From assembly GCA_965243615.1 (NCBI GenBank), contig CBDEVO010000003.1, positions 2,690,701 through 2,754,700 on the forward strand: a DNA stretch of 64,000 nucleotides. The letters run 5' to 3'. Shown piece after piece: positions 948 through 26,993 of the stretch (its first letter is position 1; each line of letters begins with the position of its first letter). The stretch comes from Vicinamibacterales bacterium. GTDB taxonomy: Bacteria; Acidobacteriota; Vicinamibacteria; Vicinamibacterales; UBA8438. The position numbers were made by a program, and so were the translations under genes. The notes under the pieces are model-generated. The model searched no databases. It had not been told where the DNA came from and saw nothing but the letters and a program-made list of their open reading frames with translations.

Positions 948-1248
948 GTGAAGATCGAGAATACCGCAACAAAGACGGGCTCTTGTGGAGCTTCGCGATC
1001 ACCCTATACCACGTTTCGGACCACGCGATGATTCCAGTCCAGAGCGGTCCATGAAAATCCGCGGCGGCCGCGGCGGTTGCGGCGGTGCGGCGGTAACCGT
1101 TCGGCGAAGCCGGTATGGGCCGTAACGATCCGCGCGGGTGCCGTCGCGGGCCGCAACGCCTCCACTGCTCTATCATGCACCCACCGCCGACCGCGCGGCT
1201 GCCGTTTGCGTCATACTGTTGCACCGGATCATTTTCAGCGGAGGGACC

Positions 1249-2802: not shown

Positions 2803-2807
2803 TTCGG

Positions 2808-2834
2808 TGGATATGGGGCCCGGCCCCATGTCCA
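2808..2834 (+). terminator. Inverted repeat (13-nt arms, 1 mismatch) just after the TlpA-like stop codon
   Basis: TGGATATGGGGCC c GGCCCCATGTCCA. There is no T-run, so terminator function is uncertain. Confidence 0.35.
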
Positions 2835-2959
2835 TACCCGGTAGAGTCGACGACTGGCGCGGTGGCGGTAGGCGGAAGGGGGTAGCTGTTCCCGGCGGCT
2901 TTCGCCAAGTGCCGGTGCCTCACTCCCCGCCGTGGCTCCGTTTCCAGTCGCCGCTCATC

Positions 2960-2992
2960 GAACCGGACGTGCGGATCTCCCGCATCCGGCTC
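2960..2992 (-). ncRNA. Group II intron domain V
   Basis: Minus strand reads GAGCCGGAUGCGGGAGAUCCGCACGUCCGGUUC. This is a 33-nt hairpin matching the DV consensus (GAGC..AUG..GNRA-type loop..GUUC), just downstream of the IEP stop. Confidence 0.85.
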
Positions 2993-3002
2993 TCGGACGA
3001 GA

Positions 3003-4343
3003 TCATGCCTTCGCCCACGGATGGCGCGCCGTTCGCGTGGCAAGGCGCGTGAGCCCGTACTCCGTCCAGAGTCGCTCGTACGGGAAGCGCACAGATTTCC
3101 CGTCTCGCACCTTGTGCTTGCGGCAGAGCCACTGGCGCAGCCGCCGCGTAGCGTGCTGGTCAACGGCGCGATACGCGGGACTGACCTGCCCGAGGGTGAA
3201 GTAGTTCGCCCAGCCGGTCAGCAACCGGTTCAGGCGCGCCACCACCTCGCTTGGCGGCAGGAGCGCGTCACGCCGTGTCGTCAGCTCGCTCACGCGACGG
3301 CAGATGCTCTGGACGCTCTCCCGGCTGGGGCGCGTGCCGATGTAGGCGGCACCCGTAAACGGCCGGTAGTTGCGCCCAATCCGGTAGCCGAGGAACGTCA
3401 TCGATTCCTCCGGCACCCGGCAGCATCGGGTCTTCTCGGCGTTCATCGGCAGCTTCAGACGCCGCATCAGCCCTTCGACCGCCGTCAGCATCTCTGCCGC
3501 CGGCGCTCGGCCGAGCACCGCGAAGTCGTCCGCGTAGTTGACGATTTCCGCCCCGAAGCGCCGGGCGTACCCCAGCACCTTCCAGCCCCGGATGAAGCGG
3601 CGCATGTAGACGTTGCTGAACAGCGGCGAAATCGGTGACCCTTGCGGGGTACCCTTCCGCTCGCGACGCGCACGGTTCGTCCGGTGGCGTCCGCCCCGAC
3701 CATCGTCCTCCTCGACCGCCATCTCCAGCCACGCCTTGACCCACCCCAACAGCCGACCGTCGCTCACGCGACGGGCGACCGATTTCAGCAGGTCCGCGTG
3801 CGGGATTTCGCCGAAGTAGTTCGTCAGGTCGGCGTCCACCACCTCCCGATGCCCGGTGTTCAGCAGCCGGTGTACGCGTCTGACCGCGTCATTCGCGCCC
3901 CGGCCCGGCCGGTAGGCGTATTGCTCCGGTTCGAGGTCCGCTTCGAAGATCGGCGACAGCACCAGCATCGCCGCCGTCTGCGCTACCCGGTCCCGGAGAC
4001 ACGGAATGCCTAACGGCCGGAACTTCCCGCGCTGCTTCTTCGGGATGAGCACCTGCCGGACCGCCTGCGGCCGGTAGGTCCCCTCCTTCAGGTCCCGCGC
4101 CAGAGATCCCAGCCACCCGTCCACCCCCTGCGATTCGACGTCCGCGACCGTCTCGCCGTCCACCCCGGCCGCGCCGCCGTTGCGGCGGACGGTCTGCCAG
4201 GCGACCGCGAGCACGTCGTCGCGCCACACCTTGTCGCTCAGAGAGTAGAACCGGAAGCCCGGAGCCTCCTTCGCTTTCGCATGTAGCGCCCTCTGGAGTC
4301 GCTGAACCCGTTCTGAGGCTGCTAGGCTTGCGCCAGTCCCCAC
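3003..4343 (-). CDS. Group II intron reverse transcriptase/maturase (IEP), no HNH endonuclease domain
   Basis: RT motifs: RPLGIPCLRDRVAQ, TPQGSPISPLFSNVYM, YADDFAV. Maturase X region: LNRLLTGWANYF. The C-terminus is short. Confidence 0.95.
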   Translation of the reverse strand: MGTGASLAASERVQRLQRALHAKAKEAPGFRFYSLSDKVWRDDVLAVAWQTVRRNGGAAGVDGETVADVESQGVDGWLGSLARDLKEGTYRPQAVRQVLIPKKQRGKFRPLGIPCLRDRVAQTAAMLVLSPIFEADLEPEQYAYRPGRGANDAVRRVHRLLNTGHREVVDADLTNYFGEIPHADLLKSVARRVSDGRLLGWVKAWLEMAVEEDDGRGGRHRTNRARRERKGTPQGSPISPLFSNVYMRRFIRGWKVLGYARRFGAEIVNYADDFAVLGRAPAAEMLTAVEGLMRRLKLPMNAEKTRCCRVPEESMTFLGYRIGRNYRPFTGAAYIGTRPSRESVQSICRRVSELTTRRDALLPPSEVVARLNRLLTGWANYFTLGQVSPAYRAVDQHATRRLRQWLCRKHKVRDGKSVRFPYERLWTEYGLTRLATRTARHPWAKA

Positions 4344-4838
4344 GTCCCTTCCTCCGTCATGCGCTGCTCTCGAACCGAGGCCCCTTCCCTCCGCCGGCGT
4401 TACCCGGCTTCCCCGGTACTACGGGCCCCTCCGCCACCCTGCTCGGCCCGACCCGACCCTCACGGGCTGTCGGTTGGCGCGTGCCACGCCACCGGCAGGG
4501 CTTCCCGTGTTGCGTCCATCCCCCTCTTCCACGCGTGCCGTCGCCACTACCCCGGCGGAACCGGCCGGTGCTCGCGTCGCTCGCTTCCCGGCCGCTGGCA
4601 GCCTTCCCCAAGTCGTGGGCGGGTCGGCTTCCGCATCACCGGTTTCGGGGCCTGCTCGGCGTTCACTCACGTTACGGCCCGCGTGGTCGCTGAGCCGCCA
4701 AGGCGGCCCTTGTCGTCGGAGTGCTTCAGTCGATGTCGTTACCTCCATCGCCCGCTCCGACTGCTACCGGCTGGAGCGACAGTTGCCGGGCGGGATTCGC
4801 ACCCGCTGAGGAACGGCGCCTTTCACGGCGCACCGCGA

Positions 4839-6724: not shown

Positions 6725-7438
6725 TCACGTTCCGCAGATCGTCATCCGTCGTCTCGGAGCCGCTGGGATTCCCCGACGCCCCCCTCTCTGGCTCCGAGGT
6801 CGCCGGCTCGATTGTTCCTCACCGCACAGATCTCGCGATGAGCCGTGGGGGCCTTGGTACGCAGTACCTTGTTCCAGCCTTCGCCGACGGTTCGGCCGCA
6901 CCCTCCTGAGAAACTGCGCAATTGGCGCACCGTCGTCGTTCGGCCTCACCAGTCTGGCCTTTGCCGGAGTCGACCGTCTCGACCGCCTCTGCGGTCGGTT
7001 CGGCGGTGGCGGCCGCCCCGCACCCAGGTTCGCCAGCTTCGCCGCGGCCAGCGGCCGCCGGCGGGCACCCACGGTCGGCAGTCTGCCCCACGGAACCGGC
7101 ATACCCGCCCGTTCGTACGCGAGCGCGCGGTTCCGACCGTCGAGTATCAGGTCATCGCAGATGGAAACCGGCACTCGGCAGCCGTTCGTCCTGATGTCGG
7201 TCGCCAGCGCCTCAAGCTCGGCATCTTTCATCAGGGGTAAAGCACTCGGCGGCCGGATGGGCTCGCAGCCGGCGGCCTCGACCACCCGTCGAACGGCTGG
7301 GCCGCAGCCACGAGCGGGGCTGACACCATCAACACACAGAGCATCCAGCGCATCAACCTCCACAGGTTGCACAGACGGTCCACAGCCCCTGGACAGGTGA
7401 TCCCGCCGCGCCGCGGCGATGACGTCACGGGTGCGCAC
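6725..7438 (-). CDS. ParB/Srx-like nuclease-domain protein, 3' half possibly degenerate
   Basis: LPLMKDAELEALATDIRTNGCRVPVSICDDLILDGRNRALAYERAGMPVPW, then ..AAAKLANLGAGRP. The downstream sequence loses family resemblance in all frames. Confidence 0.5.
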   Translation of the reverse strand: MRTRDVIAAARRDHLSRGCGPSVQPVEVDALDALCVDGVSPARGCGPAVRRVVEAAGCEPIRPPSALPLMKDAELEALATDIRTNGCRVPVSICDDLILDGRNRALAYERAGMPVPWGRLPTVGARRRPLAAAKLANLGAGRPPPPNRPQRRSRRSTPAKARLVRPNDDGAPIAQFLRRVRPNRRRRLEQGTAYQGPHGSSRDLCGEEQSSRRPRSQRGGRRGIPAAPRRRMTICGT

Positions 7439-9821: not shown

Positions 9822-10091
9822 GATCACGTTTCGCAGATCGTCAGCCGTCGTCGGAGCCGCCGGGGTCCCCACGCGCCCATTTCTGGCTCGGAGGTCGCCG
9901 GCTCGGTTGGTCCCACCGAAGAATACCACGCCGTCATGGACAACCACGGCCCCGAACGTACGTATTCTCAGCGCTCCTCGATGGGCGCCCCCGAAGCTGG
10001 TTCCCCCCAAGCGCTGCGGTTCAAGCGGCCTTGCCGCGCCGATGCCGAGCGCGAGTTCAGGGTTCCCGTCCTGGGCCCTAGTCATGGCGGT

Positions 10092-12758: not shown

Positions 12759-13093
12759 GGGTCACCTCCAGCAGACTTGCCATTCCGTGAACGTCACTCA
12801 GGTAGAGTGTCAACCCTAGAGACGTAACGACGTGTCCAGCGGTTCCGTGGAGACTCGGGCCTCCGTTTCCGGCCCGTCCTCCGGCGCGGCGGTCACGTTG
12901 CGGCAGGTCTTCCTGCAAGGATAATGGCCCGGTCGCCTGACGTCCGGTACCCGTATATTCGACCCTGATTGAGCAACGGTCGCCCTCCCCGATGCAGGCT
13001 GTCGGACGTATGCGTGTATGTACCGAAATGGATCAAGACCACGAGGTTCCAGTAAAGTGCATGTTCGTCTTGGGAGGCGGTATACTTTCCGAT

Positions 13094-14116
13094 ATGACCA
13101 CCATCGACTTCGCGGAGGCGGTCCGGCGGCGGCTCGCGGAGAGAGGACAATCCCGGTACCGGGCCGCCGTCAACAGCGGCCTGCCGCAAGACGCGATCCG
13201 GTCGGTCCTGAACGGGCACGTCCCCCGCCTGAACCGCGCCGAGCAGATCTGCCGAGCCCTCGGCATGGAGCTCTACATCGGTCCGTCGCGGGATGTTCAG
13301 GTCGAGGCCGATGGCGGAGAACCGTCCCGCCCGCTGACTCGCTTCGACCCGAGCGTCCAACTGCCGGTGCGGGTGTTGTCGCAGCCGTCGCCGGGGGTCC
13401 ACCTGACGGAGAGCGAAGAGGCCGATCGGACGAGGCCGGCGCCGGTGGATCTGGACGACCCCCAGGCGTTCTACGTGAGCTGCCACGGCGACTCGATGGT
13501 CCCGGCCGGCATCCGGTCGGCGGACTTCTGCCTCGTCTCTCCGTGCGCGAAGCTCGAACCCGGTCAGCGGATCTGGCTGCGGGACCGGCAGGGGCGCGAA
13601 GGACTGCGGTGGCTGATCAGGCTGACGGCGGCCACCTACGAGGTGGCCCCCTGGGAAACGCCCAAGCCGAACGGCCACCAGGATCTGGTCCCCGAGCGGT
13701 GGGAGCGCAAGAACGTCGACGACCGCGGCGTCGTCCTGGCGGTGTACCGCGGTTGGCTCGTTCCGTCGGACCCGGTGTACCGGCTTCCCGACTGGCGCCC
13801 CGGCCCGCTCACCGGTTTGTGGCGGGCGCTGCTCGACGAGGAGCCGGACCTCCAGGCCGCGGTGGCCGAGCATCTCGAAGAAACGACCTCCTCCTTCAAC
13901 CGGCGGATCACGGGCTGGCTCAAGCACGGTTCGGTCCGGCGCTCCGACATGCAGGATCTCCTGCAGCAGGTCGAGGACGTGAAGCAGTTGGCGCAGTTGC
14001 TGTCCCGGCAATCGGCGGCGTCCCGCAACGAGTCCGGAGCGCGTGGCGAAGAAGCTGACCGGCCCGCCGACGGGCGCGGGGGCGAGGGAGCAGTGACGGA
14101 TCCCGCCCTCGCGTGA
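13094..14116 (+). CDS. CI/LexA-like repressor: XRE HTH + S24 peptidase domain + ~110-aa C-terminal extension
   Basis: HTH: AEAVRRRLAERGQSRYRAAVNSGLPQDAIRSVLNG. S24 core: FYVSCHGDSMVPAGI..GQRIWLRDRQG..RGVVLAVY. Extra helical, acidic tail after residue ~235. Confidence 0.8.
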   Translation: MTTIDFAEAVRRRLAERGQSRYRAAVNSGLPQDAIRSVLNGHVPRLNRAEQICRALGMELYIGPSRDVQVEADGGEPSRPLTRFDPSVQLPVRVLSQPSPGVHLTESEEADRTRPAPVDLDDPQAFYVSCHGDSMVPAGIRSADFCLVSPCAKLEPGQRIWLRDRQGREGLRWLIRLTAATYEVAPWETPKPNGHQDLVPERWERKNVDDRGVVLAVYRGWLVPSDPVYRLPDWRPGPLTGLWRALLDEEPDLQAAVAEHLEETTSSFNRRITGWLKHGSVRRSDMQDLLQQVEDVKQLAQLLSRQSAASRNESGARGEEADRPADGRGGEGAVTDPALA

Positions 14117-14262
14117 CGGCGCCCGCCGGCCGATCTTCGTCCTCGACGACCTGCCCTTTCGCTCACTTCCCACCACCGGCTCGACACTGACCCACCTCAC
14201 GAACGGACGCCTGCCGGGCGGCAGTCGGCGGCCGCCCGGCGCCACGGGCGCACGAGTCGCCA

Positions 14263-14793
14263 TCATTCATCGGGCGGCTCCTGCGCATTGACGCGGTCGA
14301 GCATCGCGCCGATCACGGAGGTCGCCTTCGCCTTGCCGAGCTTCTCCAGCGCGGGCTCGTCGGGGTCGACGCCGAACTCCCGCGCGAACTGCGGATGCTC
14401 CTCGACCAGCTTGGCCAACAGCTTCTTCTGCCGGGCGGTGATCGGAGCCGGCCGCGCGGCTGCCGTCTCGGCCTTGTCTGCGTCGTTGGGGTCGGCGGAC
14501 GGCTCGGCATCGAGACCGAAGAGGGCGCGGTCGTCGGGCCGCTTCAGGGCCCGGATCTGCTCGTCCAGCCAGCCGAGGCTGATGTCGGTCCGCGACGTCT
14601 GCGCCGCCCGGACGATGGCCCCGACGATGATCTTGCGCCGGGTCTCCCGCCTGCGCTCGGTCTTCGCCTCGTCCGTCTGGAGCCGGCGCAGTCGATCCGC
14701 GAGGAGCCTGTCGGCGTCCCTCGTTTTGGCCGCCAACTCCTGCCGCCGCTCCTTGAGCTTCACGATCCGGGTAGCACGTCTTGACGTCTGCAT
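14263..14793 (-). CDS. Relaxosome accessory protein (MobC-position; DTRRKI-type motif as in small TraD/MobC proteins)
   Basis: ..KTERRRETRRKIIVGAIV.. motif. Transcribed divergently from the relaxase across the oriT region. Confidence 0.65.
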   Translation of the reverse strand: MQTSRRATRIVKLKERRQELAAKTRDADRLLADRLRRLQTDEAKTERRRETRRKIIVGAIVRAAQTSRTDISLGWLDEQIRALKRPDDRALFGLDAEPSADPNDADKAETAAARPAPITARQKKLLAKLVEEHPQFAREFGVDPDEPALEKLGKAKATSVIGAMLDRVNAQEPPDE

Positions 14794-14906
14794 GACTCAG
14801 GTATGTATCATGAATCCAGGCGATAGAAAAATGGAGCAAATCAACAAAACCAGACAAGAATCCCCCGGACTCCACGGCACAAACTGAAGGAAACCCCGAA
14901 ACCCGA

Positions 14907-14940
14907 AGGGCGCACTTACCGGTTTCGCTGCGCGAAACCG
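14907..14940 (-). promoter_or_regulatory. oriT core, RSF1010/R1162 (MOBQ) type: 9-bp inverted repeat plus nic region
   Basis: Minus strand reads CGGTTTCGC gca GCGAAACCG GTAAGTGCGCCCT. AAACCGGTAAGTGCGCCCT matches the RSF1010 oriT core as I recall it. It lies between divergent mobC-like and mobA-like genes. Confidence 0.75.
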
Positions 14941-14979
14941 ACGTGCGACGAGAGCCTTCGGCCCGAAGAGCACGACGCC

Positions 14980-17900
14980 ATGTATTGCCACGTCAACGTG
15001 AGCACGGGCAGCCGCGGCACGGGCCAGTCGGCGGCGGCGAAGTACGACTACATCAGCCGCGAGGGCAAGTACGAGGCGGCCTGTCAGGACGAGGTGGTGC
15101 ACCTCGAGTCGGGCTGCATGCCGTCGTTCGCGTCGTCGGACGCGCGGCTGTACTGGGCGGCGGCCGACGTGCACGAGCGGAGCAACGGGCGGCTGTTCCG
15201 CTCGCTGACGGCGGCGCTGCCCAACTCGCTGGACTCTGCCGATCGGCTCGAACTGGCGCGGAGCTTCGCGGCGCACGTGACGGGGGGCGAGCTGCCGTAC
15301 ACGCTGGCGGTGCACGCCGGCGACTCGAAGAAGGCGGGGGTGGCGGACAACCCGCACCTGCACCTGGTGTTCTCGGAGCGGGTGAACGACGGGGTGGAGC
15401 GCGGGGCGGAGCAGTGGTTCCGGCGGGCGGCGCCGAAGAAGGGCGATCCGGCGTCGGGGGGCGCGAGGAAGACGGAGCGGACGAAGCCGCGGGCGTGGCT
15501 GGAGGAGACGCGACAGGCGTGGGCGGGGGAGATGAACCTGGCGTTCGAGCGGGCCGGCGTGGACGACCGGGTGACGTCGGAGAGCCACGCCACGCAACTG
15601 GCGCGGGCGCGCGCGGCCGGCGACGCGGCGGAGGAGGTGCGTCTTCTGCTGAACCCGCCGTCGTTGCACATCGGCCCGCCGGCGAAGCACAGCTGGGAGG
15701 ACCGGCCGGGGAGGGCGCAGGAGCTGAAGCCGGATCGGTATGCGGCGGCCGAGGCGGCGGCGGCTTCCGCCGAGGAGGTCCGTTCGGCGCACGCGCCGGA
15801 CGTGGCGGAAGTGGCCGAGGCGAGGTCGCGGGTCGCGGTGCTCGACGCGCGTATCGCGGCGCTGGAGGCGGAGGCGGCGACCGGCGAACGGCGGGCCGGG
15901 CTGGCCGCCCGCGAGGAGTCGGTGCGGGCGACGTCGGCGGGCGGGCAGTGGCTGGACGAGGCGCACCGGTCGGTTCTCGCCCGCGCCGGCGGCCGCCTGA
16001 CGCCGGGCGAGAGGGAACGCGCCGTGGAGACGGTGGAAGGCCGTCTCCGCGCGGACCTCGCCGCCCGCGAGGAGTCGCTCATGGCGACGTCGACCGGTTC
16101 GACGTTGCTGAGGGAGGAGTACGGGGAGGCCGTCGCTTTGGCGGCGGCGGCGCAGAGCTTCGCGAAGCGGGAATCCGTTCTGGAACGGGTCGCGCAACGG
16201 GTCGGCGAGGAGCTGTCGGCTCGCGAGGAAGCGCTCCGGTCGATCCCGCTGGGCCGGCAGCATCTGTCGGCGGCGGAACAAGCTCGGGCCGTCGGGCCAG
16301 CGGGGCCGCCACTGGCCGAGCGCGAGTCGGTGGTCCGAGCGGCGGAGCAGCGGGTGGGGGAAGAGCTCGACCGACGCGAGGAACGGGTCCTCGCGGCCAC
16401 GGGCGACGACCGGCTGCTGGCCGGGGCGGCCGAAGAGCTGACGGAGCGCGGAGCGGTCTCGGGCGACGGCGGCTTCGCGGAGCGGGCGCTGATCATCGAC
16501 CGGGCGGAGGACCTGCTCGAGGCGGAGCGCGCCGAGTTCGGGCTCAAGGAAGCGGATCTGCGGAAGGACGCGGCCGGCGAGGAGTTTCTCCGCGACGCCC
16601 GGGGCGATGTCCTCGGCGCCGCCGACCGGGAGCCGGATACGCTCGCCGACGACCGGGCCGTCATCGACCGGGCGGCCGCGGCGAAGGCCCGCGTCGAGGC
16701 GCTCGGCATCGGGGGCATGGACCTGTACCACGCCCACCTGGCGGACATCGATCCGAAGTGGGGCGTGGACGGGAACGCCGCGACGACGCGCGCGAACCAG
16801 GATGCGGCGCTGAGCGCGGCGGAGTCGGACGTCGCGCGCCTCGGGCGCCTTCGCGCCGTGCTGTCGGACGAGGCCGCCGCCGCCCGCTACCGCGAGGTCC
16901 TCGGCGACAGTCCGGGGCGGTTCGACACGGCGGTCCTCGACAAGGCCCTCGCGGCGGGCGAGCGGGAGCGGGAGGAACGCGCGGCGACGGCGTGGGCCGG
17001 GCTGGCCGCCCGCGAGGAGTCGGTGCGGGCGACCTCGGCGGGCGGGCAGTGGCTGGACGAGGCGCACCAGTCGGTCCTTGCCGACGCCAGCGGCCGTCTG
17101 GCGCTGGGCGAGAGGGAACGCGCCGTGGAGACGGTGGAAGGCCGTCTCCGCGTGGACCTCGCCGCCCGCGAGGCGTCGCTCATGGCGACGTCGACCGGCT
17201 CGACGTTGCTGAGGGAGGAGTACGGGGAGGGCGTCGCCGCGGCGGCGGCGCAGAGCTTCGCGGAGCGGGAATCCGTTCTGGACCGGGTCGCGCAACGGGT
17301 CGACGAGGAGCTGGGGGCTCGCGAGGAAGCGCTCCGGTCGATCCCGCCGGGCCGGCGGCATCTGTCGGCGGCGGAGCAGGCTCGGGCCGGCGGTGCTGCG
17401 GCGGCGCCGCCGACCCCGGCCGAGCGCGAGTCGATGGTCCGCGCGGCGGAGCAGCGGGTGAGGGAGGATCTCGACCGGCGCGAGGAACGGGTCCTCGCGG
17501 CCACGGGCGACGACCGGCTGCTGGCCGAGGCGGCCGAAGAGCTGGCGGAGCGCGGCGCGGTCTTCGGCGACGGCGGCATCGAGGAGCAGGCGCTGATCAT
17601 CGACCGGGCGGAGGACCTGCTCGAGGGGGAGCGCGCCGGGCTCGAGCTCGAGGAAGGCAAGCTGTTGAAGGCCGCCGCCGGCGAGGAGCTTCTCCGCAAC
17701 GCCCGGCGCGACGTCCTCGGCGACGACGACCGGGATGCGGAGACGCTCGTCGACGGCTGGGCCGTCATCGACCAGGCGTCCGCGGCGAAGGCCCGCGTCG
17801 AGGCGCTCGGCACCGGGGGCCTGGACCTGTACCACGCCCACCTGGCGGACATCGATCCGAAGTGGGGCGTGGACGGGAACGCCACGACGACGCGCGGGAA

Positions 17901-19659
17901 CCAGGATGCGGCGCTGAGCGCGGCGGAGTCCGACGGCTCGCGCCTCGGGCGTCTTCGCGCCGTGCGGTCGGACGAGGCCGCCGCCGCCCGCTACCGCGAG
18001 GTTCTCGGCGACAGTCCGGACCGGTTCGACACGGCGGACCTCGACAGGGCTCTCGCGGCGGGCGAGCGGGAGCGGGAGGAACGCGCGGCGGCGGCGCGCC
18101 GTGCGGCGGACCTCGAGACGGCCACGGAGAAGGCCCGGGCCGCGGCGGCGCGGTCGAAGGTCGACTTGCGCCCCGCCGCTGTCCGTGCGGTCTACGAAAC
18201 CGGCGAGACGCACGCGGCCGGTCTCGCGGCCGTGGAGCGCACGACCGAGGCCCTCGACGCTGCGGCCGACCAGGGTCTCCCGACCGGCACGGTCATGGAC
18301 GCCTGGACCGCGAACCGTTCGGCACCCGGCGGGATAGCGGCGGCCCTTGCCGCCGCCACCGCCGCCGCCCGCCTCGAGGAGGAGCGCGCCGAGGCGCGGC
18401 GCAAGCAGGCGGCCATCGAGAAGCGCAACTCTCGCGTGAAGCAGCTGTTGGCCGACCCCGCGTCGGCCGACGCACTCATTGAGGCCCTCGAAGCGGAGGA
18501 CCCGTCGTGGCGGTCAGGGACCCGCCCGGCCTGCATCGACCGGGCGCTCGACGTCGCCGAGCGGGACGCCGGCCGCCGGGAGGTCGCCACTCGGCGACAC
18601 CGGGAACACGAGGTGGTCCTGGAGGCGGAACAGCGCTTCCCCGACGCCACCAGCACGGCGTGCCAATTCGCGGGTGGCCGTTTCGACGGGACCACGGAGG
18701 TCGGCCGTGCGGGCCGGCGCGTCTCGCAGGATCTCTCGGACCGCGCCCTCGTGAGAGCGCACGCGGCCGAGAAGGCCGAGGCGCCGGCGCCTCGCAACTT
18801 CGTTCAGCGGCTCTACGACTGGCTGCGGGATCGGCTCGAGCGGCTGTTCGGCCGTTCGCCCGGCCCGCCCGCGGAGGCCGCCACCCTCGGGCCGGAGGCC
18901 TCCGCGGAGCGCTCGGCCGAAGCGGGCCGGCCTCGACCCGCCGCCTTCGAGGAGCGGTACTGCCGGGAGTGGCCCGAGCACGCGGCCGACATCGACTGTC
19001 CGGACTTCGAGAAGCTGGCCGCGGGCGCGTCAGGCGCCAACCGGCTCTTCGAGCGGGAGGAGCCCCGCTCGTCAAGATGGATCACGGTCGAACCGGGCGA
19101 GTTGCCGGCCGCTCTCGCCAAGCCCGCGCCGGCTTGGAGCGACAAGGCCGTCGAGGAGGTGACCCGGCGGGCTACAGTCTGGGACCCGGACCGGACCGAG
19201 GGCCGGCGGGTCGCCGAGGCGCACCTGGGCGGCTACGAGAGCCGGTTGCCGGCGGAGTACTCGCACTCGGCGGAATGGCAGGCGATCCTGAAGCGTGCGG
19301 AGGAGGCCGTCCGGAAGGCCCAGAACAGCTGGCGGTACAAGTGGGCCGACCGCCGAAAGGACGACCGGAAGAAGCGGGAGCTCGAGGCGACCGCTATCAA
19401 CCGCGCCTGCGGCCGCGATGCGCGCCGCCTGCACGGGAAGATGATGGCGGGGCGTGAGGCCGCGCGGCCCGGCTGGGAGGTCACGGTCAGGATCCGGGCC
19501 GTTCAGGAGCTCATCCGGGACGAAGAGGCGACCCGTTTCAGACAAGAGCGGGAGCAGGCGCGGGAACGGGAACAGGCGCAAGAGCGGGAGCGCCCCGCCG
19601 ACAGGCCGCCGCCCGAGCAGAAGCGGCCGAGAGGCCGGGGACATGTTCTAGATCGATGA
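14980..19659 (+). CDS. mobA: MobA/MobL-family (MOBQ) relaxase, 1559 aa, with repeat-rich Ala/Glu/Arg C-terminal region
   Basis: N-terminal relaxase motifs: AAAKYDYISREGKY (catalytic Tyr region) and LAVHAGDSKKAGVADNPHLHLVFSER (HxDx..NPHxH). No primase or helicase motifs recognised downstream. Confidence 0.9.
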   Translation: MYCHVNVSTGSRGTGQSAAAKYDYISREGKYEAACQDEVVHLESGCMPSFASSDARLYWAAADVHERSNGRLFRSLTAALPNSLDSADRLELARSFAAHVTGGELPYTLAVHAGDSKKAGVADNPHLHLVFSERVNDGVERGAEQWFRRAAPKKGDPASGGARKTERTKPRAWLEETRQAWAGEMNLAFERAGVDDRVTSESHATQLARARAAGDAAEEVRLLLNPPSLHIGPPAKHSWEDRPGRAQELKPDRYAAAEAAAASAEEVRSAHAPDVAEVAEARSRVAVLDARIAALEAEAATGERRAGLAAREESVRATSAGGQWLDEAHRSVLARAGGRLTPGERERAVETVEGRLRADLAAREESLMATSTGSTLLREEYGEAVALAAAAQSFAKRESVLERVAQRVGEELSAREEALRSIPLGRQHLSAAEQARAVGPAGPPLAERESVVRAAEQRVGEELDRREERVLAATGDDRLLAGAAEELTERGAVSGDGGFAERALIIDRAEDLLEAERAEFGLKEADLRKDAAGEEFLRDARGDVLGAADREPDTLADDRAVIDRAAAAKARVEALGIGGMDLYHAHLADIDPKWGVDGNAATTRANQDAALSAAESDVARLGRLRAVLSDEAAAARYREVLGDSPGRFDTAVLDKALAAGEREREERAATAWAGLAAREESVRATSAGGQWLDEAHQSVLADASGRLALGERERAVETVEGRLRVDLAAREASLMATSTGSTLLREEYGEGVAAAAAQSFAERESVLDRVAQRVDEELGAREEALRSIPPGRRHLSAAEQARAGGAAAAPPTPAERESMVRAAEQRVREDLDRREERVLAATGDDRLLAEAAEELAERGAVFGDGGIEEQALIIDRAEDLLEGERAGLELEEGKLLKAAAGEELLRNARRDVLGDDDRDAETLVDGWAVIDQASAAKARVEALGTGGLDLYHAHLADIDPKWGVDGNATTTRGNQDAALSAAESDGSRLGRLRAVRSDEAAAARYREVLGDSPDRFDTADLDRALAAGEREREERAAAARRAADLETATEKARAAAARSKVDLRPAAVRAVYETGETHAAGLAAVERTTEALDAAADQGLPTGTVMDAWTANRSAPGGIAAALAAATAAARLEEERAEARRKQAAIEKRNSRVKQLLADPASADALIEALEAEDPSWRSGTRPACIDRALDVAERDAGRREVATRRHREHEVVLEAEQRFPDATSTACQFAGGRFDGTTEVGRAGRRVSQDLSDRALVRAHAAEKAEAPAPRNFVQRLYDWLRDRLERLFGRSPGPPAEAATLGPEASAERSAEAGRPRPAAFEERYCREWPEHAADIDCPDFEKLAAGASGANRLFEREEPRSSRWITVEPGELPAALAKPAPAWSDKAVEEVTRRATVWDPDRTEGRRVAEAHLGGYESRLPAEYSHSAEWQAILKRAEEAVRKAQNSWRYKWADRRKDDRKKRELEATAINRACGRDARRLHGKMMAGREAARPGWEVTVRIRAVQELIRDEEATRFRQEREQAREREQAQERERPADRPPPEQKRPRGRGHVLDR
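15898..18093 (+). repeat. In-frame tandem duplication, 2 x ~1.1 kb (367 codons) inside the relaxase gene
   Basis: Unit 1 starts at 15898 and unit 2 at 16999 (period 1101 nt). Both begin GLAAREESVRATSAGGQWLDEAH and end ..AAGEREREERAA. The copies are diverged, with a few indels. Confidence 0.9.
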
Positions 19660-19841
19660 GCCCGCTTCGCGGAAGCAGCGCTCGCTAGGGCCCGGCAGGA
19701 GACGCCGTGCGCCACCAGCGCGAGGAGAGCGAGGACTGCCCGGTCGAGCTGAGGCCGTCGGAAGACCTTCAGTGACGAGTAAATCCTAACAGCCTGCCGG
19801 CAGGAGGGCCTTGGCGCGGTCGATATAGAGTCGAGCGGGGG

Positions 19842-19879
19842 TGACGACACGCTCTTCGTGCTCGACGGCGTGCCGTACC
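19842..19879 (+). repeat. 38-bp direct repeat, copy A
   Basis: TGACGACACGCTCTTCGTGCTCGACGGCGTGCCGTACC; 36/38 identical to 22188-22225. Confidence 0.8.
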
Positions 19880-20079
19880 TTCGCGCCGCTGGCCGCCGAC
19901 GGTCAGCGTCAACCTCGCCGTCGTAGCCGCCCCCGAGGCCGCGTGCGCCAGCGTCGCCTTGTCCTCCGCCGTGTCGTCGTCCTCGCTCGCCGTCACCCGT
20001 CCGGGCGTGCTCCCATTGCCCCTTACCAGCCCGGGCTTTTCGTCGGGTTTCTGGCCGGGCCACGTGATAGGCTGAAGGC

Positions 20080-20361
20080 ATGGAGGCTCTCACGCCGTGG
20101 TTGACGCCCGTCCTTCTGGTCGGGCTCTTCGTGTGGCTGCGGCGCGAACTGAACGGTCGCCTTGACAGATCAGAGAAGCGGCTCACCGACCGCATGGAGA
20201 AGATCGAGAAGCAGGTCGGCGAGCTGGCCAAGGACATGAACCAGCGGTTCGACCAGGTCAACCGCGAGCTGGCCGATCTGCGCGAGCGGATGGCGAAGCT
20301 CGAGGGCTCGCTCGAAGGGTTCCTCGCCGGCCGCCGCGACCGCGACGTCGCCCGACGATGA
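20080..20361 (+). CDS. Small membrane-anchored coiled-coil protein
   Basis: N-terminal TM WLTPVLLVGLFVWL, then heptad-like RLTDRMEKIEKQVGELAKDMNQRFDQVNRELADLRERMAKLEG. High GC3. Confidence 0.55.
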   Translation: MEALTPWLTPVLLVGLFVWLRRELNGRLDRSEKRLTDRMEKIEKQVGELAKDMNQRFDQVNRELADLRERMAKLEGSLEGFLAGRRDRDVARR

Positions 20362-20372
20362 GGATACAAACC

Positions 20373-21296
20373 ATGGAGAGCAACCCGACTCAGAGGACCG
20401 TGTTCATCACGGGTACGAACTCGGGCTTCGGCAAGGCCACCGTCGAACTGTTTGCGGCGAACGGTTGGAGGGTCGCCGCGACGGTGCGGAACAAGGATCG
20501 GCACGCGGACCTGTTCACGGAACTCGCGGGCGTCAAGCTGTACGAACTGGATGTGGACGACTTCACCCGGGTAGAGCAGGTCGCAGGCGAGGTCGTCAAC
20601 GACTTTGGTCGCGTCGACGTGGTGGTCAACAACGCCGGCTACTGCCTGATGGGGCCGACAGAGACCAGCACCATGGAACAGATCCGGAAGCAGTTCCAGA
20701 CCAACACTTTAGGCGTATTCGCCGTGACCAAGGCGTTCCTGCCCCACATGCGCGAGGCGGGCGGCGGGACCATCATCAACATCGCATCCGCGAGCGCTGT
20801 GTTCAACTACCCCTTCATCGCCGCCTACGGCGCAAGCAAGTGGGCGGTCCGCGGTCTGACCGAGAGCCTGGCCGTCGAGCTCGCCCCGTTCAACATCCGC
20901 GTCAAGGGGATCTACCCGGGATTCCACGCGACCGGGATCTTCACCAAGCTCGATCAGGGGACCGCGGATGAAGGCCCCGAGTACCGACTCTACAAGCCTT
21001 ACTACGCCAATTTCCTCTCGGCACAGAAGGCCCTGCCCAGTGCGGGAAGCCCGGACAGAATCGCCCGGACGATTTATCGCGCGGCGACGAACCCGGCCGG
21101 AAGGCCGCACATCGTGTCCGGGGCGGACGCTAAGCTGCTGGCGTTCATCAAGCGCGTGCTGCCACAGCGGGCGTTCCTGCGCTTCCAGACGCGCTCGATT
21201 CTGTCGCCTATCTCGAAAACGCAGGCGGCATTCATGAGGTTCACCTTCGGCAAGAACCAGCAACCGTTGCGCATGGACCTGCCCGAAGACTTGTGA
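20373..21296 (+). CDS. Short-chain dehydrogenase/reductase (SDR) family oxidoreductase
   Basis: TGTNSGFGKA (TGxxxGxG), NNAG, and S..YGASKWAV (YxxxK). Confidence 0.9.
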   Translation: MESNPTQRTVFITGTNSGFGKATVELFAANGWRVAATVRNKDRHADLFTELAGVKLYELDVDDFTRVEQVAGEVVNDFGRVDVVVNNAGYCLMGPTETSTMEQIRKQFQTNTLGVFAVTKAFLPHMREAGGGTIINIASASAVFNYPFIAAYGASKWAVRGLTESLAVELAPFNIRVKGIYPGFHATGIFTKLDQGTADEGPEYRLYKPYYANFLSAQKALPSAGSPDRIARTIYRAATNPAGRPHIVSGADAKLLAFIKRVLPQRAFLRFQTRSILSPISKTQAAFMRFTFGKNQQPLRMDLPEDL

Positions 21297-21575
21297 TTAA
21301 CCGCGCCCGGGGCTCCGGGGACGGGGTGGGTCGCGCGGGCGAGCGGCTGCACGCCCGTCCCCGGGTCGTCTGCGGAAGGGGGCGAGATCCTACGTCAAGC
21401 GGGGGTGCTACATCAGCGAGCAGTACGGTTGGCTATTCGAGCCTGCGCGCCTCGAGTACGACGGCGGGCGGCTCGTCATCCTCAAGACCACCGCCGACGG
21501 TACGGCCGAGAGCTGGACGGAGGTAGGGGGACCCGGCGCTGATCGCTCCGGACGATCATCGACAGAGGAGGCGAC

Positions 21576-22190
21576 ATGAGCGAAGCAGTCACCGTGACTC
21601 TGGGACGCGACCCGGCCCAGCGACGGCGGGCGACCTACCAGGATGTGCTCGATGCCCCCGCCCATCGGGTCGCCGAGGTCGTTGACGGCGTGCTCCACAC
21701 GAATCCGCGGCCGGCCATGCCGCATTCTTTGGCGAGTTCCCGACTGGGCGGCGAACTCACGGGACCATTCGATCGGGGTCGCGGCGGCCCCGGCGGATGG
21801 TGGATCATCTTCGAGCCCGAGCTGCACTTGGGCGAGGATATCCTCGTGCCCGACCTCGCCGGTTGGCGGCGGGAGCGGATGCCTGTCTTTCCCGATGCGC
21901 CGTACGCCACGCTGGGCCCCGACTGGGTGTGCGAAGTGCTCTCGCCGTCGACCCGCAAGCTGGACCTCCACGGCAAGCGCGACGTCTATGGGCGTGAACA
22001 GGTGGGTCATCTCTGGCTCGTCGACCCCGCCGACCGCACCCTGGAGGCCTTCGAACTGCGCGAGGGCGAATGGGTGCTGATCGCCACCGCGCAGGATGAC
22101 GCCCCCGTCAGCATCCGCCCCTTCGACGCCGTCACCTTCAGCCTCGGCGATCTCTGGCCGCCGAATGTCGCCCCGGCCGAGGGGGGCTGA
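21576..22190 (+). CDS. Uma2-family (DUF820) putative endonuclease
   Basis: GAGGAGG Shine-Dalgarno. VPDLAGWRRERMP, PDWVCEVLSPSTRKLDLHGKRDVYGREQVGHLWLVDP. Confidence 0.85.
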   Translation: MSEAVTVTLGRDPAQRRRATYQDVLDAPAHRVAEVVDGVLHTNPRPAMPHSLASSRLGGELTGPFDRGRGGPGGWWIIFEPELHLGEDILVPDLAGWRRERMPVFPDAPYATLGPDWVCEVLSPSTRKLDLHGKRDVYGREQVGHLWLVDPADRTLEAFELREGEWVLIATAQDDAPVSIRPFDAVTFSLGDLWPPNVAPAEGG

Positions 22191-22225
22191 CGACACGATC
22201 TTCGTGCTCGACGGCGTGCTGTACC
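22188..22225 (+). repeat. 38-bp direct repeat, copy B (overlaps the Uma2 stop codon)
   Basis: TGACGACACGATCTTCGTGCTCGACGGCGTGCTGTACC. Confidence 0.8.
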
Positions 22226-22241
22226 ATAGAAACGAGGACGG

Positions 22242-22769
22242 TCAGTTCGGAAAACCCCGCGTCAGAAGTCCATCGAGCGCCAGCTTGAACCACGCAGTGT
22301 ATCCCGTCGGACGCTCCGCGAACTCCCTTTGAATCGTGGGCACGGTCGCCCACTTCCATTCCTCCACTTCTTGGTCGTCCGGTGCCGGAACACCACAGAA
22401 CCGCCCAATCAGCACGTGATCGAACTCATGCTCCACGAGTCCGCCGTCCGTTGCTGCCCGGTACACGAAGCCGAACACGACCCGCAGCGGGCAGTTGAAC
22501 CCCATTTCCTCCTTCAACCGGCGCTCAGCAGCCCCAATCAGGGACTCTCCCGCCCTCGGATGGCCGCAACAGGTGTTGGACCAGAGACCGCCCGAGTGGT
22601 ACTTGCCGGCCGCGCGCTTCTGCAACAGCAGGCGGTCGGTTTCGTCGAAGACGAAGATCGAGAACGCCCGGTGCAGGATTCCGTTCCGGTGAGCCGCCAT
22701 CTTCTCCACGACTCCCGTTTGCCGGTCGTCGCCGTCGACGGCAATCAGGAGCGTATCGGAATCCTGCAT
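22242..22769 (-). CDS. idi: Isopentenyl-diphosphate delta-isomerase, type 1 (Nudix)
   Basis: HRAFSIFVFDETDRLLLQKRAAGKYHSGGLWSNTCCGHP..AAERRLKEEMG..LVEHEFDHV. The catalytic Cys and Glu contexts are present. Confidence 0.9.
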   Translation of the reverse strand: MQDSDTLLIAVDGDDRQTGVVEKMAAHRNGILHRAFSIFVFDETDRLLLQKRAAGKYHSGGLWSNTCCGHPRAGESLIGAAERRLKEEMGFNCPLRVVFGFVYRAATDGGLVEHEFDHVLIGRFCGVPAPDDQEVEEWKWATVPTIQREFAERPTGYTAWFKLALDGLLTRGFPN

Positions 22770-22848
22770 GGGTGTTCACCTCTTAACCGCGGCATCGACG
22801 GAATCGTCGACTGGATGTTTGCCGCCGGGAAGTCGTCGGCCCGCCGGG

Positions 22849-24117
22849 TCACCATTCTCGCGAATCTTCCTCGAACACCGAGGTCGGCAGGCTGTAGGAA
22901 TGCTCGTACTCGCCGAGATTCGAGACTTCGAGCATGCTCCTGAACCGCGACCTCGACCGATACGCGGCCAGCGGCGGCGCGAGCCTCCGCAGCATCCTGT
23001 CGCCGAAATTGCGCAGCCGCAGCAGCGGAAGCTCCTTCTTCAGTCTTCCGGCGGGGAACCTCAGCTCGTCGGCCAGCCCGTCCCCGATCATTTCCCGCGA
23101 CACCTGGTACATGTACTTCGCCATGGCGCGCCGCGCCTTGGGTTCGGTGAACCCCAGAACGATCGGCGCGCTGTTGACGATGCTGTTCGCCATGATGATC
23201 GCGTCCTCGTCGGGCCGCGGCTCGCACAGCGCTCCAATCTCGAACCACCTGACCGACGAGGCGTAGTCCCGGAACAGGATCTCGTCGGGTATCCCCATGA
23301 GGCGGCCGGTGTACCGCCAGACGTGCACGTACCCCTCGCGTTCCCGGTCGCTGAAATCTCCGCCGAGGTTCGATACATGCTGCAGCAGCCTCCCCGAGAA
23401 GGCGGCGGCGCCGAGCAGCATGTGCGCCGCGCTGAGGGGGACCCCGTATACCGACCGGTCCCATTCGTCGGAAGTCGAGACCAGCCGCCTCGCCTGCGCG
23501 TGCACGAGCCGGATCCTGAGGCTCAGCTTCCACCCGTCGCCGCCCGGCTCGATGCCTCCGGGCAGGTACTGTTCCAGGAGCTGCAGCAGGTTCTGCTTGA
23601 GCCGCCGCACGCCGTTCGTCATGATGCGGCTGCGAATGCGGAACGACTTGCTGATGAGCGTGGAGAAGCCCTCGATGATGGCGCCGCCCACCAGGGCGCC
23701 CATCACCATCTCGGAGTTGCGAAGGAAGGCCCGGGTCGCGTCGCGGGCGAGATCGCGGTCGAACCAGTCGGGCACGACGCCCGAGTCAGCAATCAGGTCA
23801 CGCAGCGACTTGGGCGTGTCGGCCGGCAGATCGCTGAAGCTGTCGAGCGTCCTCGCGATGATTCCGTGCACGTCCGCCGGCGACGCGTTCGCCGCCAGCT
23901 CGGCGACCACCGCGTCGGCCACCGGGTCCCCCAGGGTCGTGTGGCGGATGTACCTCTCGGCCAGCACGGGGTCGACCTTGCGGGCGGTTTCGTAACCGGC
24001 GACGTAGGCGGTCGGGATGTTCATCATGCCGGAGAAACGCTCGGTGAGGGGGGGTGCGCAACGAGGAGCGGAACCGCCTGCGTCGGGTGAACGCGGCGGC
24101 GCGGTCATCGCCGTCAC
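22849..24117 (-). CDS. MpaB/Lcp-family oxygenase (DUF2236)
   Basis: ..WKLSLRIRLVHAQARRLV..GVPLSAAHMLLGAAAF..YVHVWRYTGRLMGIPDE. A GTG start at 24117 overlaps the upstream P450 stop (GTGA). Alternative ATG starts at 24108 and 24027. Confidence 0.7.
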   Translation of the reverse strand: MTAMTAPPRSPDAGGSAPRCAPPLTERFSGMMNIPTAYVAGYETARKVDPVLAERYIRHTTLGDPVADAVVAELAANASPADVHGIIARTLDSFSDLPADTPKSLRDLIADSGVVPDWFDRDLARDATRAFLRNSEMVMGALVGGAIIEGFSTLISKSFRIRSRIMTNGVRRLKQNLLQLLEQYLPGGIEPGGDGWKLSLRIRLVHAQARRLVSTSDEWDRSVYGVPLSAAHMLLGAAAFSGRLLQHVSNLGGDFSDREREGYVHVWRYTGRLMGIPDEILFRDYASSVRWFEIGALCEPRPDEDAIIMANSIVNSAPIVLGFTEPKARRAMAKYMYQVSREMIGDGLADELRFPAGRLKKELPLLRLRNFGDRMLRRLAPPLAAYRSRSRFRSMLEVSNLGEYEHSYSLPTSVFEEDSREW

Positions 24118-25514
24118 CTCGCGCGCTCCCGGATGGTCACTCGAAAGCCGAGGACGCCTACCCCGATGTTCTCGCGTTTCGGCGGGCGGCTCGACGCCGG
24201 CTCGATCCGCAGGCGCTGGGTCATGGTCGCCAGCGCCAGGACGAACAGCATCGCCGCCAGATCCGCGCCGGCGCAGGTGTGCGGGCCGCTCCCGAAAGGG
24301 ATGTACGCCTGTTCGTGTCGGACCGGTCCGTCACGCCGCGAGTCCTCCAGCCAGCGTTCCGGCCTGAACTCGCCGGCCCGCGTCCAACCGTCGGCGCGGT
24401 GGTGGAGCACACGCATGCCGACGTACACCAGCGTTCCCTTCGGAACCGGATAGCCGCCCAGCACGCAGTCTTCCTCCGCCCGCCTGGCCCGCATGACATA
24501 GGGCGGCGGCTCCAGACGCAACGTCTCCTTGAACACCGCCTGCACGTACTCGAGCCTCTGCAAGTCGCCCGGCTCCACCGGCCGGTCCCCCAGCACGTCC
24601 GAGACCTCTCTCTCCACCCGATCCCGGATGGCCGGATCGCGTGCGACGTGGTGCAGCGCGAAGCACAACGCGGCCGTCGGCGCATCCGTGAACGCGCACA
24701 GGAAGGCGATGATCTCGTCGCGCAGCGCCCGGGGGCTCGGGTACGACCACCCGCACAGACCCCGGCGCGCGGCCCGGACGAGGTGTGAAACCAGATCGCG
24801 GCCCTCGTGGGCGGGGTCGCCGGCGCGTTCGATGGCGCCGTATATCGCCGCGTCCAGCGCCGCGGTATCGGGCGCCCGCCCCATCTTCTTGATGGACTGG
24901 CCGAACGGCAGGAGATCCAGAAGCATCGCGGCTTTCAACAGCCTGCAGATCCGCAACCCCTGATCGCGGTCCGCGTCGCGGCCGAGGACGGCCTCCGCCA
25001 GGGCGTCCCACACGTAGCGCTCCACCTCCGGCCGCAGATCCAGCGCCCGCCCCGGCGCCAGCCTCTCTCGGAGCCTCAGGGCGTGCCGGCCGATGACCTC
25101 CGCGTAGCCGGGAAGGCGGTCCTTCGTGAACGCCGTGGCCATGAGCTCGGCGCGCCGGCGGTGCTCCTCGCCGTCGTGCACGGGCAGGCAGCCGTGCTCC
25201 ATCAGCGGGTTCGGCTCCCGGCCGCCGGGCGCCCAGGGCGGAAAGGACTCCGCCCGCGTGACGAGGACCTCCCGGACGAGGTCGGCGTTGAAGACCGCGC
25301 AACACCTCAGGGAAGGAAGACTGAAGAACACGATGTCTCCATGGTCCCGGTAGAGCCGCTCCATGAACTCCGGAAAGCCGGTGAGCCGCTCGACGTAGTT
25401 GCGCAGCCGCCGGCCCCGCGGTCCCGGGGGACGGGCCGGCTTGTCGTCGGCGGAACGCTGCCCGGCCATGTCCTCCGAGCTGGGAGCCGGCTCTTCTTTG
25501 GCGGAACGCTGCAT
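24114..25514 (-). CDS. Cytochrome P450 (paralog A)
   Basis: Heme loop FGSGPHTCAGADLA, ExxR region ETLRLEPP, N-terminal PPGPRGRR. Confidence 0.9.
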   Translation of the reverse strand: MQRSAKEEPAPSSEDMAGQRSADDKPARPPGPRGRRLRNYVERLTGFPEFMERLYRDHGDIVFFSLPSLRCCAVFNADLVREVLVTRAESFPPWAPGGREPNPLMEHGCLPVHDGEEHRRRAELMATAFTKDRLPGYAEVIGRHALRLRERLAPGRALDLRPEVERYVWDALAEAVLGRDADRDQGLRICRLLKAAMLLDLLPFGQSIKKMGRAPDTAALDAAIYGAIERAGDPAHEGRDLVSHLVRAARRGLCGWSYPSPRALRDEIIAFLCAFTDAPTAALCFALHHVARDPAIRDRVEREVSDVLGDRPVEPGDLQRLEYVQAVFKETLRLEPPPYVMRARRAEEDCVLGGYPVPKGTLVYVGMRVLHHRADGWTRAGEFRPERWLEDSRRDGPVRHEQAYIPFGSGPHTCAGADLAAMLFVLALATMTQRLRIEPASSRPPKRENIGVGVLGFRVTIRERAR

Positions 25515-25533
25515 CGCGATGTCCTTCTTCGAA

Positions 25534-26907: not shown

Positions 26908-26993
26908 CGATCGCCGTTCCTTTCCTGTTTCCCTTCCCGCACTCCGCGCCCGCCGCCCGCGTCGCAACGCGCCGCGCCCGTCCGCGCGCCGTG

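Follow-up and report, generated by a model that had tools for sequence, protein, structure and literature searches.

A probable RSF1010-like MOBQ origin of transfer, with relaxase and MobC genes, on an integrative mobilizable island of a Vicinamibacterales chromosome

The best-studied broad-host-range mobilization system is that of RSF1010/R1162 (IncQ1, MOBQ1), a small replicon whose origin of transfer (oriT) lies between the divergent genes mobC and mobA, which encodes MobB in addition to a MobA relaxase fused to a primase, and which depends on a foreign type IV secretion system (T4SS). The RSF1010 fragment MobA(1-186) cleaves CAGTTTCTCGAAGAGAAACCGGTAAGTGCG/CCCTCCC in vitro, i.e. at GTGCG/CCCT, and cuts equally well when the hairpin of the substrate is shortened (CCGGTTGAAAACCGGTAAGTGCG/CCCTCCCC), which implies that MobA reads only the base of the stem (PMC4814116). 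The motif II glutamates E74 and E76 of R1162 MobA are listed among its catalytic residues (PMC6856555). For the MOBQ class a nic consensus, NWACCNNTAAGTGCGCCCTYNN, has been published (quoted in PMC3832669), and a similar one is cited for Gram-positive plasmids (PMC10333310). Here we report a likely relative of this system in a 64,000-nucleotide stretch of DNA (the window; contig CBDEVO010000003.1, assembly GCA_965243615.1) from a chromosome of the Vicinamibacterales (Acidobacteriota). Minus-strand positions 14899-14946 are best read, with a probability that we put at about 0.8, as the oriT of a MOBQ RSF1010-like module, mobC <- oriT -> mobA, carried by a 53-kb integrative mobilizable element (IME). 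The kind of system itself is a well-known one, and IMEs carrying MOBQ-class relaxases are reportedly the class surveyed by Guglielmini et al. in 2011; this oriT, with its cognate relaxase and MobC, belongs to a multicopy IME family of the Vicinamibacterales.

The putative oriT lies in a 186-bp gap (14794-14979) between two divergent open reading frames (ORFs), 14263-14793 on the minus strand and 14980-19659 on the plus strand, both of which carry the signature of real genes in the GC content of their third codon positions (GC3). Minus-strand 14940-14907 reads CGGTTTCGC-gca-GCGAAACCG-GTAAGTGCGCCCT, and the parts of the site are as follows:

14940-14932, minus strand: left arm, CGGTTTCGC
14931-14929, minus strand: loop, GCA
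14928-14920, minus strand: right arm, GCGAAACCG
14920-14940, minus strand: inverted repeat with 9-bp arms and a 3-nt loop, the presumed relaxase-binding hairpin
14919-14911 and 14910-14907, minus strand: spacer GTAAGTGCG, then CCCT
14907-14919, minus strand: nic region, GTAAGTGCG/CCCT, identical to the RSF1010-type oriT
14899-14946, minus strand: conserved oriT block, GCACGT-CGGTTTCGC-gca-GCGAAACCG-GTAAGTGCG/CCCT-tCGGGTTT, delimited by phylogenetic footprinting

The RSF1010-type reference was the IncQ1/MOBQ plasmid TY474p3 (NC_016859), found by blastn, whose oriT reads CCAGTTTCTCGAAGAGAAACCGGTAAGTGCGCCCTCCCC. The two origins agree at 29/32 nt, the three differences being one loop base and a compensatory pair in the arms, where GTTTCTC/GAGAAAC of the RSF1010 type becomes GTTTCGC/GCGAAAC (T.A to G.C), so that the stem base is the same and the arms are nearly so; the segment AAACCGGTAAGTGCGCCCT is identical at 19/19 nt. 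The inverted repeat stands directly 5' of nic, and its spacing equals that of RSF1010, with nic 8 nt past the RSF1010-defined repeat, because the two share the 19-mer that links the inner arm with CCCT. Folded as single-stranded DNA, the region forms the hairpin at -22.6 kcal/mol (z = -2.96). Chance is excluded as the origin of the 19-mer match, since the 19-mer occurs only once in the window even when up to three mismatches are allowed (0.01 expected) and is placed exactly between mobA and mobC homologues in the RSF1010 orientation. A blastn search of the 186-bp gap against 72,556 plasmids matched 191 records, 162 of them typed as mobilizable, and every match was confined to the same 32-41 nt of the gap; the three records that were inspected are IncQ1/MOBQ plasmids with the match positioned between mobA/mobB and mobC. 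A promoter scan of the gap, which is uninformative for the host phylum, gave no sigma-70-like sites. We also observed an outer inverted repeat on the minus strand, CGCAC (14947-14943) ... GTGCG (14915-14911), that brackets the hairpin and ends exactly where the nick is predicted. All module copies of the lineage have it unchanged, RSF1010 lacks it, and it could hold nic in a longer stem.

By homology, the minus strand is predicted to be nicked between 14911 and 14910; the window keeps the stem base (CGG...CCG) and all sequence from there to CCCT. Its segment AAACCGGTAAGTGCGCCCTTCG is compatible with the MOBQ nic consensus at 22/22 positions. As the 19-mer is mostly this family-wide consensus, identity over it shows MOBQ membership, and it is largely a class signature that marks the family rather than RSF1010 itself. 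Accordingly, other MOBQ origins share the TAAGTGCGCCCT core with the window, so that the core defines the class (PMC3832669, PMC10333310), but they diverge from it 5' of the core, both in the consensus and in the Paracoccus plasmid pHAE1 (AAAtaCATAAGTGCGCCCTCCC), whereas the window retains the RSF1010-type arm GAAACCGG and a relaxase that is nearest MobA. Specific closeness to RSF1010 rests on the 50%-identical relaxase, the MobC homologue, the near-identical hairpin and arm, and the layout.

The original prediction had described the minus-strand hairpin and core in the divergent gap, had quoted the RSF1010 core, and had placed nic between plus-strand positions 14910 and 14911. Re-reading of the sequence confirmed the first, the alignment to TY474p3 vindicated the quoted core together with the 19-nt identity, and the nic position follows by homology from the GTGCG/CCCT cleavage of RSF1010 (PMC4814116). 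It had also likened the mobC-like <- oriT -> mobA arrangement to that of RSF1010, and homologues, position and orientation all agree. Its suggestion of a different, relaxase-specific arm next to a conserved nic core holds in part: the arm does differ and the core is conserved, but the difference amounts to one compensatory pair and a loop change, and specificity of the arm for the relaxase is not demonstrated, since MobA by the published work reads only the stem base, which is conserved here.

The two genes that flank the site are:

14980-19659, plus strand: mobA-like gene, 1559 aa, with an N-terminal MOBQ relaxase domain at aa ~1-200 (14980-15580)
14263-14793, minus strand: accessory gene resembling mobC (176 aa), transcribed away from mobA

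In its residues 4-233 the 1559-aa protein shares 50% identity with RSF1010 MobA (E 5e-63). The domain also matches the minimal relaxase of R1162 in its crystal structure (PDB 2NS6, E 1.5e-57) and the Pfam family MobA_MobL (PF03389, 51.3 bits against a cut-off of 26.7); it scores 52.9 bits against the NCBIfam MobQ equivalog and so misses the cut-off of 200 that this model sets. Tyr24 aligns with the catalytic Tyr25 of MobA and is nearly invariant among 25 homologues, and H112, H126 and H128 (HAG...NPHLH), the counterparts of the MobA metal-binding triad H112, H120 and H122, are likewise invariant or nearly so. Over 97 aa the 176-aa protein shares 33% identity with RSF1010 MobC (E 2e-11), including the motifs ETRRK(V/I)(L/I)VGA and DRALFGL, and it differs by a C-terminal extension of ~80 aa; no Pfam or NCBIfam profile matches it, and no record with its exact sequence was found. 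The strand that reads hairpin then nic heads toward mobC, with mobA diverging, as in RSF1010.

Beyond the relaxase domain the mobA-like protein carries a lineage-specific C-terminal extension of 1300 aa, in the place of the primase to which RSF1010 MobA is fused; no primase is present in it, and tblastn of RSF1010 RepB' against the window returned nothing significant. Within the gene we noted a 1.1-kb head-to-tail duplication (15882-17016 and 16982-18117, plus strand, 90.7% identity) that encodes two tandem ~370-aa repeats rich in Ala, Glu and Arg, C-terminal to the relaxase domain. This repeat content varies among gene copies, whose products range from 1604 to 844 aa, the short forms of 844-847 aa being those of loci L010 and L013. 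The last ~520 aa have only 22 homologues, which are lineage-restricted, and the C-terminal region matches no Pfam or NCBIfam family; the Trp, Pro and Tyr positions conserved in it point to a folded domain, while the AlphaFold2 model is poor (pLDDT 60, pTM 0.31).

The site is strongly conserved among relatives. The same locus is found at 97-98% identity on a 7.03-Mb contig of a sister metagenome-assembled genome (MAG), and a genome scan with the relaxase domain gave 14 loci in MAGs of Vicinamibacterales and Vicinamibacteria, five of them in the sister 7.03-Mb chromosome (~5 copies) and two on small records of 37 and 57 kb. An oriT occupies the same place upstream of mobA in 11 module copies; in ten of these, from several genomes, the ~48-nt block GCACGTCGGTTTCGC[G/A]CAGCGAAACCGGTAAGTGCGCCCT[T/G]CGGGTTT is invariant apart from two bases, the first of the loop (G or A) and the one that follows CCCT (T or G), whereas the intergenic DNA around it diverges until, in the remotest copies, it can no longer be aligned. 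The relaxase ORF is intact, at 1486-1604 aa, in at least six module copies. Public metagenomes scanned for GTTTCNCNNNGNGAAACCGGTAAGTGCGCCCT yielded 64 sites with six different loops, and the two free arm positions are complementary in 64/64, the pair being T/A in 63 and G/C in one, on a contig of 70% GC.

Module copies in one genome share an 8.7-kb backbone, which runs from a regulator with helix-turn-helix (HTH) and S24-like parts through mobC, oriT, mobA and a 225-aa HTH protein to a terminal hairpin, and which is followed in the L017 copy by a tyrosine integrase. Homology to the module begins in the window at ~12985, and two further backbone genes are present:

13094-14116, plus strand: putative regulator that opens the backbone, HTH-like at its N-terminus and with a domain resembling S24 (LexA/CI)
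34273-35001, plus strand: HTH protein of 242 aa (Pfam HTH_23), as in the L006 and L016 homologues

The regulator is 83-95% conserved across all module copies, with an invariant GxSM serine; its match to Pfam Peptidase_S24 is weak, falling short of the threshold (E 5.6e-4), and a search of solved structures with it gave no match. At the position where the LexA-type catalytic Lys is expected there is apparently an invariant Arg, which makes self-cleavage doubtful. A 457-aa minus-strand ORF over the same DNA (12893-14266) was discarded as an antisense artefact of high GC, being Arg/Pro-rich and judged by GC3 analysis, with the real gene on the plus strand. The HTH gene follows mobA directly in compact module copies, while in the window it has been displaced by ~14 kb of inserted cargo; window 33641-35159 matches L006 12829-14293 and L009 12834-14300 at 88%. 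In the L008 copy an IS110-family transposase interrupts the module just after mobA.

The proposal that the module lies in a chromosomal island proved right, both ends of that island and its empty site having been located. Its main features are:

947-54192: integrative mobilizable island, ~53.26 kb, delimited by direct repeats, gene reconstitution and an empty site
934-946, plus strand: attL (left attachment site), 13-bp direct repeat TCGCCTGGTACTA, at the 3' end of a truncated pyrroloquinoline quinone (PQQ)-dehydrogenase ORF (54-947)
54193-54205, plus strand: attR, second TCGCCTGGTACTA copy, where the PQQ-dehydrogenase frame resumes, to 55049
52865-54007, minus strand: intact tyrosine integrase next to attR (Pfam Arm-DNA-bind_3, Phage_int_M and Phage_integrase)
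51582-51866, plus strand: AlpA-family small DNA-binding protein (Pfam Phage_AlpA, 64 bits), a candidate excisionase or regulator
44604-44925, minus strand: remnant of the tyrosine integrase gene of an ancestral compact element, adjoining the terminal segment of the module (44474-44598)

The two repeats match at 13/13 positions and split a gene for a PQQ-dependent (alcohol/glucose-type) dehydrogenase at the codons for ..IAWYYQH.., the stop of the left fragment being created at the junction. The ORF that ends at 947 resumes in frame at 54193, and the joined product of 578 aa has no stop and gives a Pfam PQQ match of 206.6 bits that spans the junction; uninterrupted orthologues of the dehydrogenase are found at 97-98% identity. 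Locus L082 (93% nucleotide identity) represents the empty site, its DNA being contiguous with window 8-946 and 54190-55034 with the core present once. PQQ homology was found in none of the module-related loci examined, and integration into the same target gene is accordingly unsupported for L011, whose locus has none; the left end of the island (967-1060) is 82% identical to L011 2178-2272, which points to the end of a related element in another genome. A transfer RNA gene as target was also considered: ARAGORN gave one odd 'tRNA-???' at 44894-44984 on the minus strand, overlapping the integrase remnant and probably spurious, the real target being the PQQ-dehydrogenase gene.

Pfam scans of the ~45 ORFs within 947-54192 found no T4SS component or coupling protein (VirB4, T4CP). 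Because it has an integrase, att repeats, and an oriT with its relaxase, and because no T4SS was found, we take the island to be a composite IME of 53.26 kb; the flanking repeats and the empty site accompany an oriT and relaxase of its own, with neither mating-pore nor coupling genes. With other IMEs it shares these traits together with a modular backbone and cargo at several points and, presumably, the habit of hijacking the T4SS of conjugative elements. The family differs from other IMEs in its specific backbone (S24-like regulator, mobC, oriT, giant mobA, HTH protein and integrase) and in the PQQ-dehydrogenase target, and the literature searches turned up no description of it, nor of any example of such an IME from Vicinamibacterales or Acidobacteriota. 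In comparison with RSF1010 the window element is chromosomal and integrative rather than a small replicon, has no MobB, and resides in another phylum in DNA of 70% GC.

The cargo identified by Pfam includes MacB, RND/HlyD/OEP transporters, a P450, short-chain dehydrogenase/reductase (SDR) enzymes, an ECF sigma factor, a bactofilin and a DDE transposase. One cargo block (19700-33640) is inserted directly after the mobA stop and is lacking in the other module copies; it encodes a coiled-coil protein, an SDR, a Uma2-family nuclease, a NUDIX protein, an MpaB/Lcp-like oxygenase, a cytochrome P450 and an RND efflux system (AcrB-HlyD-OEP). We further noted a group II intron at 2841-4808 on the minus strand (Rfam group-II-D1D4-4, 89 bits; Intron_gpII domain V, 41 bits) with a reverse transcriptase/maturase ORF at 3003-4343, and an insertion sequence (IS) with a DDE_Tnp_1 transposase at 40658-42502 on the plus strand, in the DNA that separates the module HTH gene from the module end. 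Another direct repeat of 13 bp, CTATACCACGTTT, is found a short way inward of each island end, at 1004-1016 and 54040-54052 on the plus strand; these copies may be arm-type sites of the integrase. Short dispersed repeats of 84-93% identity pair 36463-36560 with 38037-38134, 34766-34837 with 37759-37829, and 6725-6824 with 9824-9918. Outside the island, GC falls to 0.61 at 56001-57000, with a GC skew of +0.245, over the ORFs 55749-56813 (no Pfam match) and 56810-57877 (fn3 domain).

We infer nicking, transfer and excision along the following lines. The tyrosine integrase and the AlpA-like protein would recombine the 13-bp repeats, so that the island excises as a circle. The HUH relaxase domain of the 1559-aa protein would then bind the base of the 9-bp minus-strand hairpin, assisted by the MobC homologue, and cut at GTGCG/CCCT between 14911 and 14910, with Tyr24 joining covalently to the 5' end at 14910 as expected from RSF1010 MobA. 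The nucleoprotein would be passed to the coupling protein and T4SS of a co-resident conjugative element, a foreign T4SS being needed, as for RSF1010, because the island has none of its own. As transfer would run 5' to 3', the mobC side would lead and mobA would enter last, after which the relaxase would recircularise the strand at the regenerated oriT and the element would integrate into the PQQ-dehydrogenase gene of the recipient.

Candidate helpers are suggested by two loci in other Vicinamibacterales genomes, L005 and L014, at which relaxase-family genes stand beside T4CP, VirB8, VirB11 and TrbL genes; the relaxase domains encoded by such T4SS-linked genes share 81-86% identity with the window domain (81% for L005). 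L005 has an oriT-like site at 3413-3435 on the minus strand, GTTTCGC-gcat-GCGAAAC-C-GTACGTGCGCCCG, ~4.6 kb from its relaxase gene, and its T4SS genes lie at 1-3142 and 13541-16365; an element of this type is a candidate helper or ancestor for the IMEs. The origins of L005-like helpers are expected to be variants of GTTTCGC...GCGAAAC followed by GTGCGCCC, while L014 showed no oriT-like site within the 16.7 kb examined. In one MAG the 5' region of the relaxase gene on a 37-kb record is 96% identical to that of the chromosomal T4SS-linked copy, which fits a scheme in which IMEs make use of the secretion pore of conjugative relatives.

Several observations weigh against a functional oriT of this kind. 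The backbone of the window copy is broken up, with 12985-19660 followed by ~14 kb of cargo, then 33641-35159, ~9 kb that include the IS, and finally 44474-44598, the module end homologous to those of L006 and L009. The original integrase of the module survives as a frameshifted ~320-bp remnant, found by tblastn with the L017 integrase (aa 266-372, 84-91% identity) in two frames. The motif II glutamates E74/E76 are replaced by S75/T77 (LFRSLTAALP against LFKEVEFALP of MobA), which lowers strict MOBQ1 membership and leaves the family-level match to the 2NS6 fold unaffected. Tblastn with RSF1010 MobB against the window gave nothing significant. Values of dN/dS are 0.30-0.52 for the relaxase domain, 0.5-0.76 for the C-terminus and 0.34-0.64 for mobC, which indicates constraint but only moderate purifying selection, and long ORFs readily persist in DNA of 75% GC. 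In the sister genome the orthologous relaxase gene has been called in two parts (184 and 1373 aa), and the L011 copy, with its nic spacer changed from GTAA to AC and no mobC ORF called, looks decayed. The candidate helpers, finally, come from related genomes.

Most of these points are what would be expected if the site were a true MOBQ oriT and relaxase by descent in a copy, or even a whole lineage, that no longer transfers and persists through recent duplication and slow decay. This main rival, a decaying remnant, explains the split module with its truncated cognate integrase, the missing glutamates, dN/dS values of 0.3-0.76, the divided sister gene and the mutated L011 copy. It sits poorly with an oriT block that stays invariant among copies with 10-30% divergence in the rest of their sequence, some of them on small replicons of their own, and with the intact state in the window of mobC, the regulator, the 4.7-kb mobA, the outer integrase, the AlpA-like gene and the 13/13 repeats. 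The Ser/Thr of motif II, moreover, is clade-wide: all close Vicinamibacterales homologues, those linked to a T4SS included, are without both glutamates, with more distant homologues varying at position 74, which makes it a lineage trait rather than a lesion. We therefore regard decay as unlikely, and activity of the window copy, as part of a mobilizable MOBQ module, as plausible.

Far less probable is that the island is a self-transmissible integrative conjugative element with an overlooked T4SS. The close relatives of its relaxase at L005 and L014 do adjoin T4CP, VirB8, VirB11 and TrbL genes; but both junctions (934-946 and 54193-54205) are inside the window, the ~45 ORFs that they enclose gave no match to any T4SS or coupling-protein family, those longer than 500 aa all being assigned otherwise. 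An IncQ-like plasmid integrated in the chromosome would account for the oriT, the MobA domain, MobC and their layout, all as in IncQ1 plasmids. We consider this just as improbable, given that tblastn found neither a RepB' primase nor MobB in the window, that Pfam scans of the island ORFs turned up no Rep families, RepA helicase and RepC included, in place of the repA/repB'/repC replicon of IncQ1, that GC content (70%) and codon usage are those of the host, and that an integrase and att repeats belong to the element itself. That the hairpin and core serve an HUH protein outside conjugation, in rolling-circle replication or relaxase-driven transposition, would explain five copies per genome and recalls that HUH enzymes include Rep proteins and transposases, yet it is scarcely credible when the copy boundaries are not at nic-like sequences, each copy has one such site, the tyrosine integrases found with copies (intact in L017, a remnant in the window) suffice to explain their spread, and the protein is the orthologue of a proven conjugative relaxase.

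Under the preferred reading of a mobilizable MOBQ module, we can also entertain, as a tentative and rather doubtful extension, that the Vicinamibacterales relaxases form a new MOBQ subclass, in which a re-wired enzyme does without the motif II carboxylates, the primase and MobB functions have been exchanged for the 1300-aa C-terminus, and the outer repeat gates nic. If so, the C-terminus with its copy-number-variable 370-aa repeats would enter the recipient with the DNA and might have a new role there, in priming by other means, in anti-defence or in establishment; the conserved outer repeat CGCAC...GTGCG could control how nic is reached; and ~5 copies per genome would make this an unusually successful IME lineage.

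While the established picture of conjugation is unchanged by this finding, it would extend the RSF1010/IncQ (MOBQ1) mobilization system to chromosomal islands of the Acidobacteriota, an abundant and mostly uncultured phylum whose gene-transfer mechanisms are little known; the host here is an uncultured, soil-type acidobacterium. A nic region and stem base that are unchanged across phyla, next to a relaxase at 50% identity, amount to a natural experiment on the constraints that act on an oriT, and predict that RSF1010 MobA and the window relaxase may cross-recognise each other's sites. For genetic work in Vicinamibacteria, the 48-nt block and its relaxase could be used as a native cassette for mobilization. 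Finally, the IME family, multicopy and with cargo that varies (RND efflux, P450 and defence-like genes among it), marks hot spots of gene flux in these genomes.

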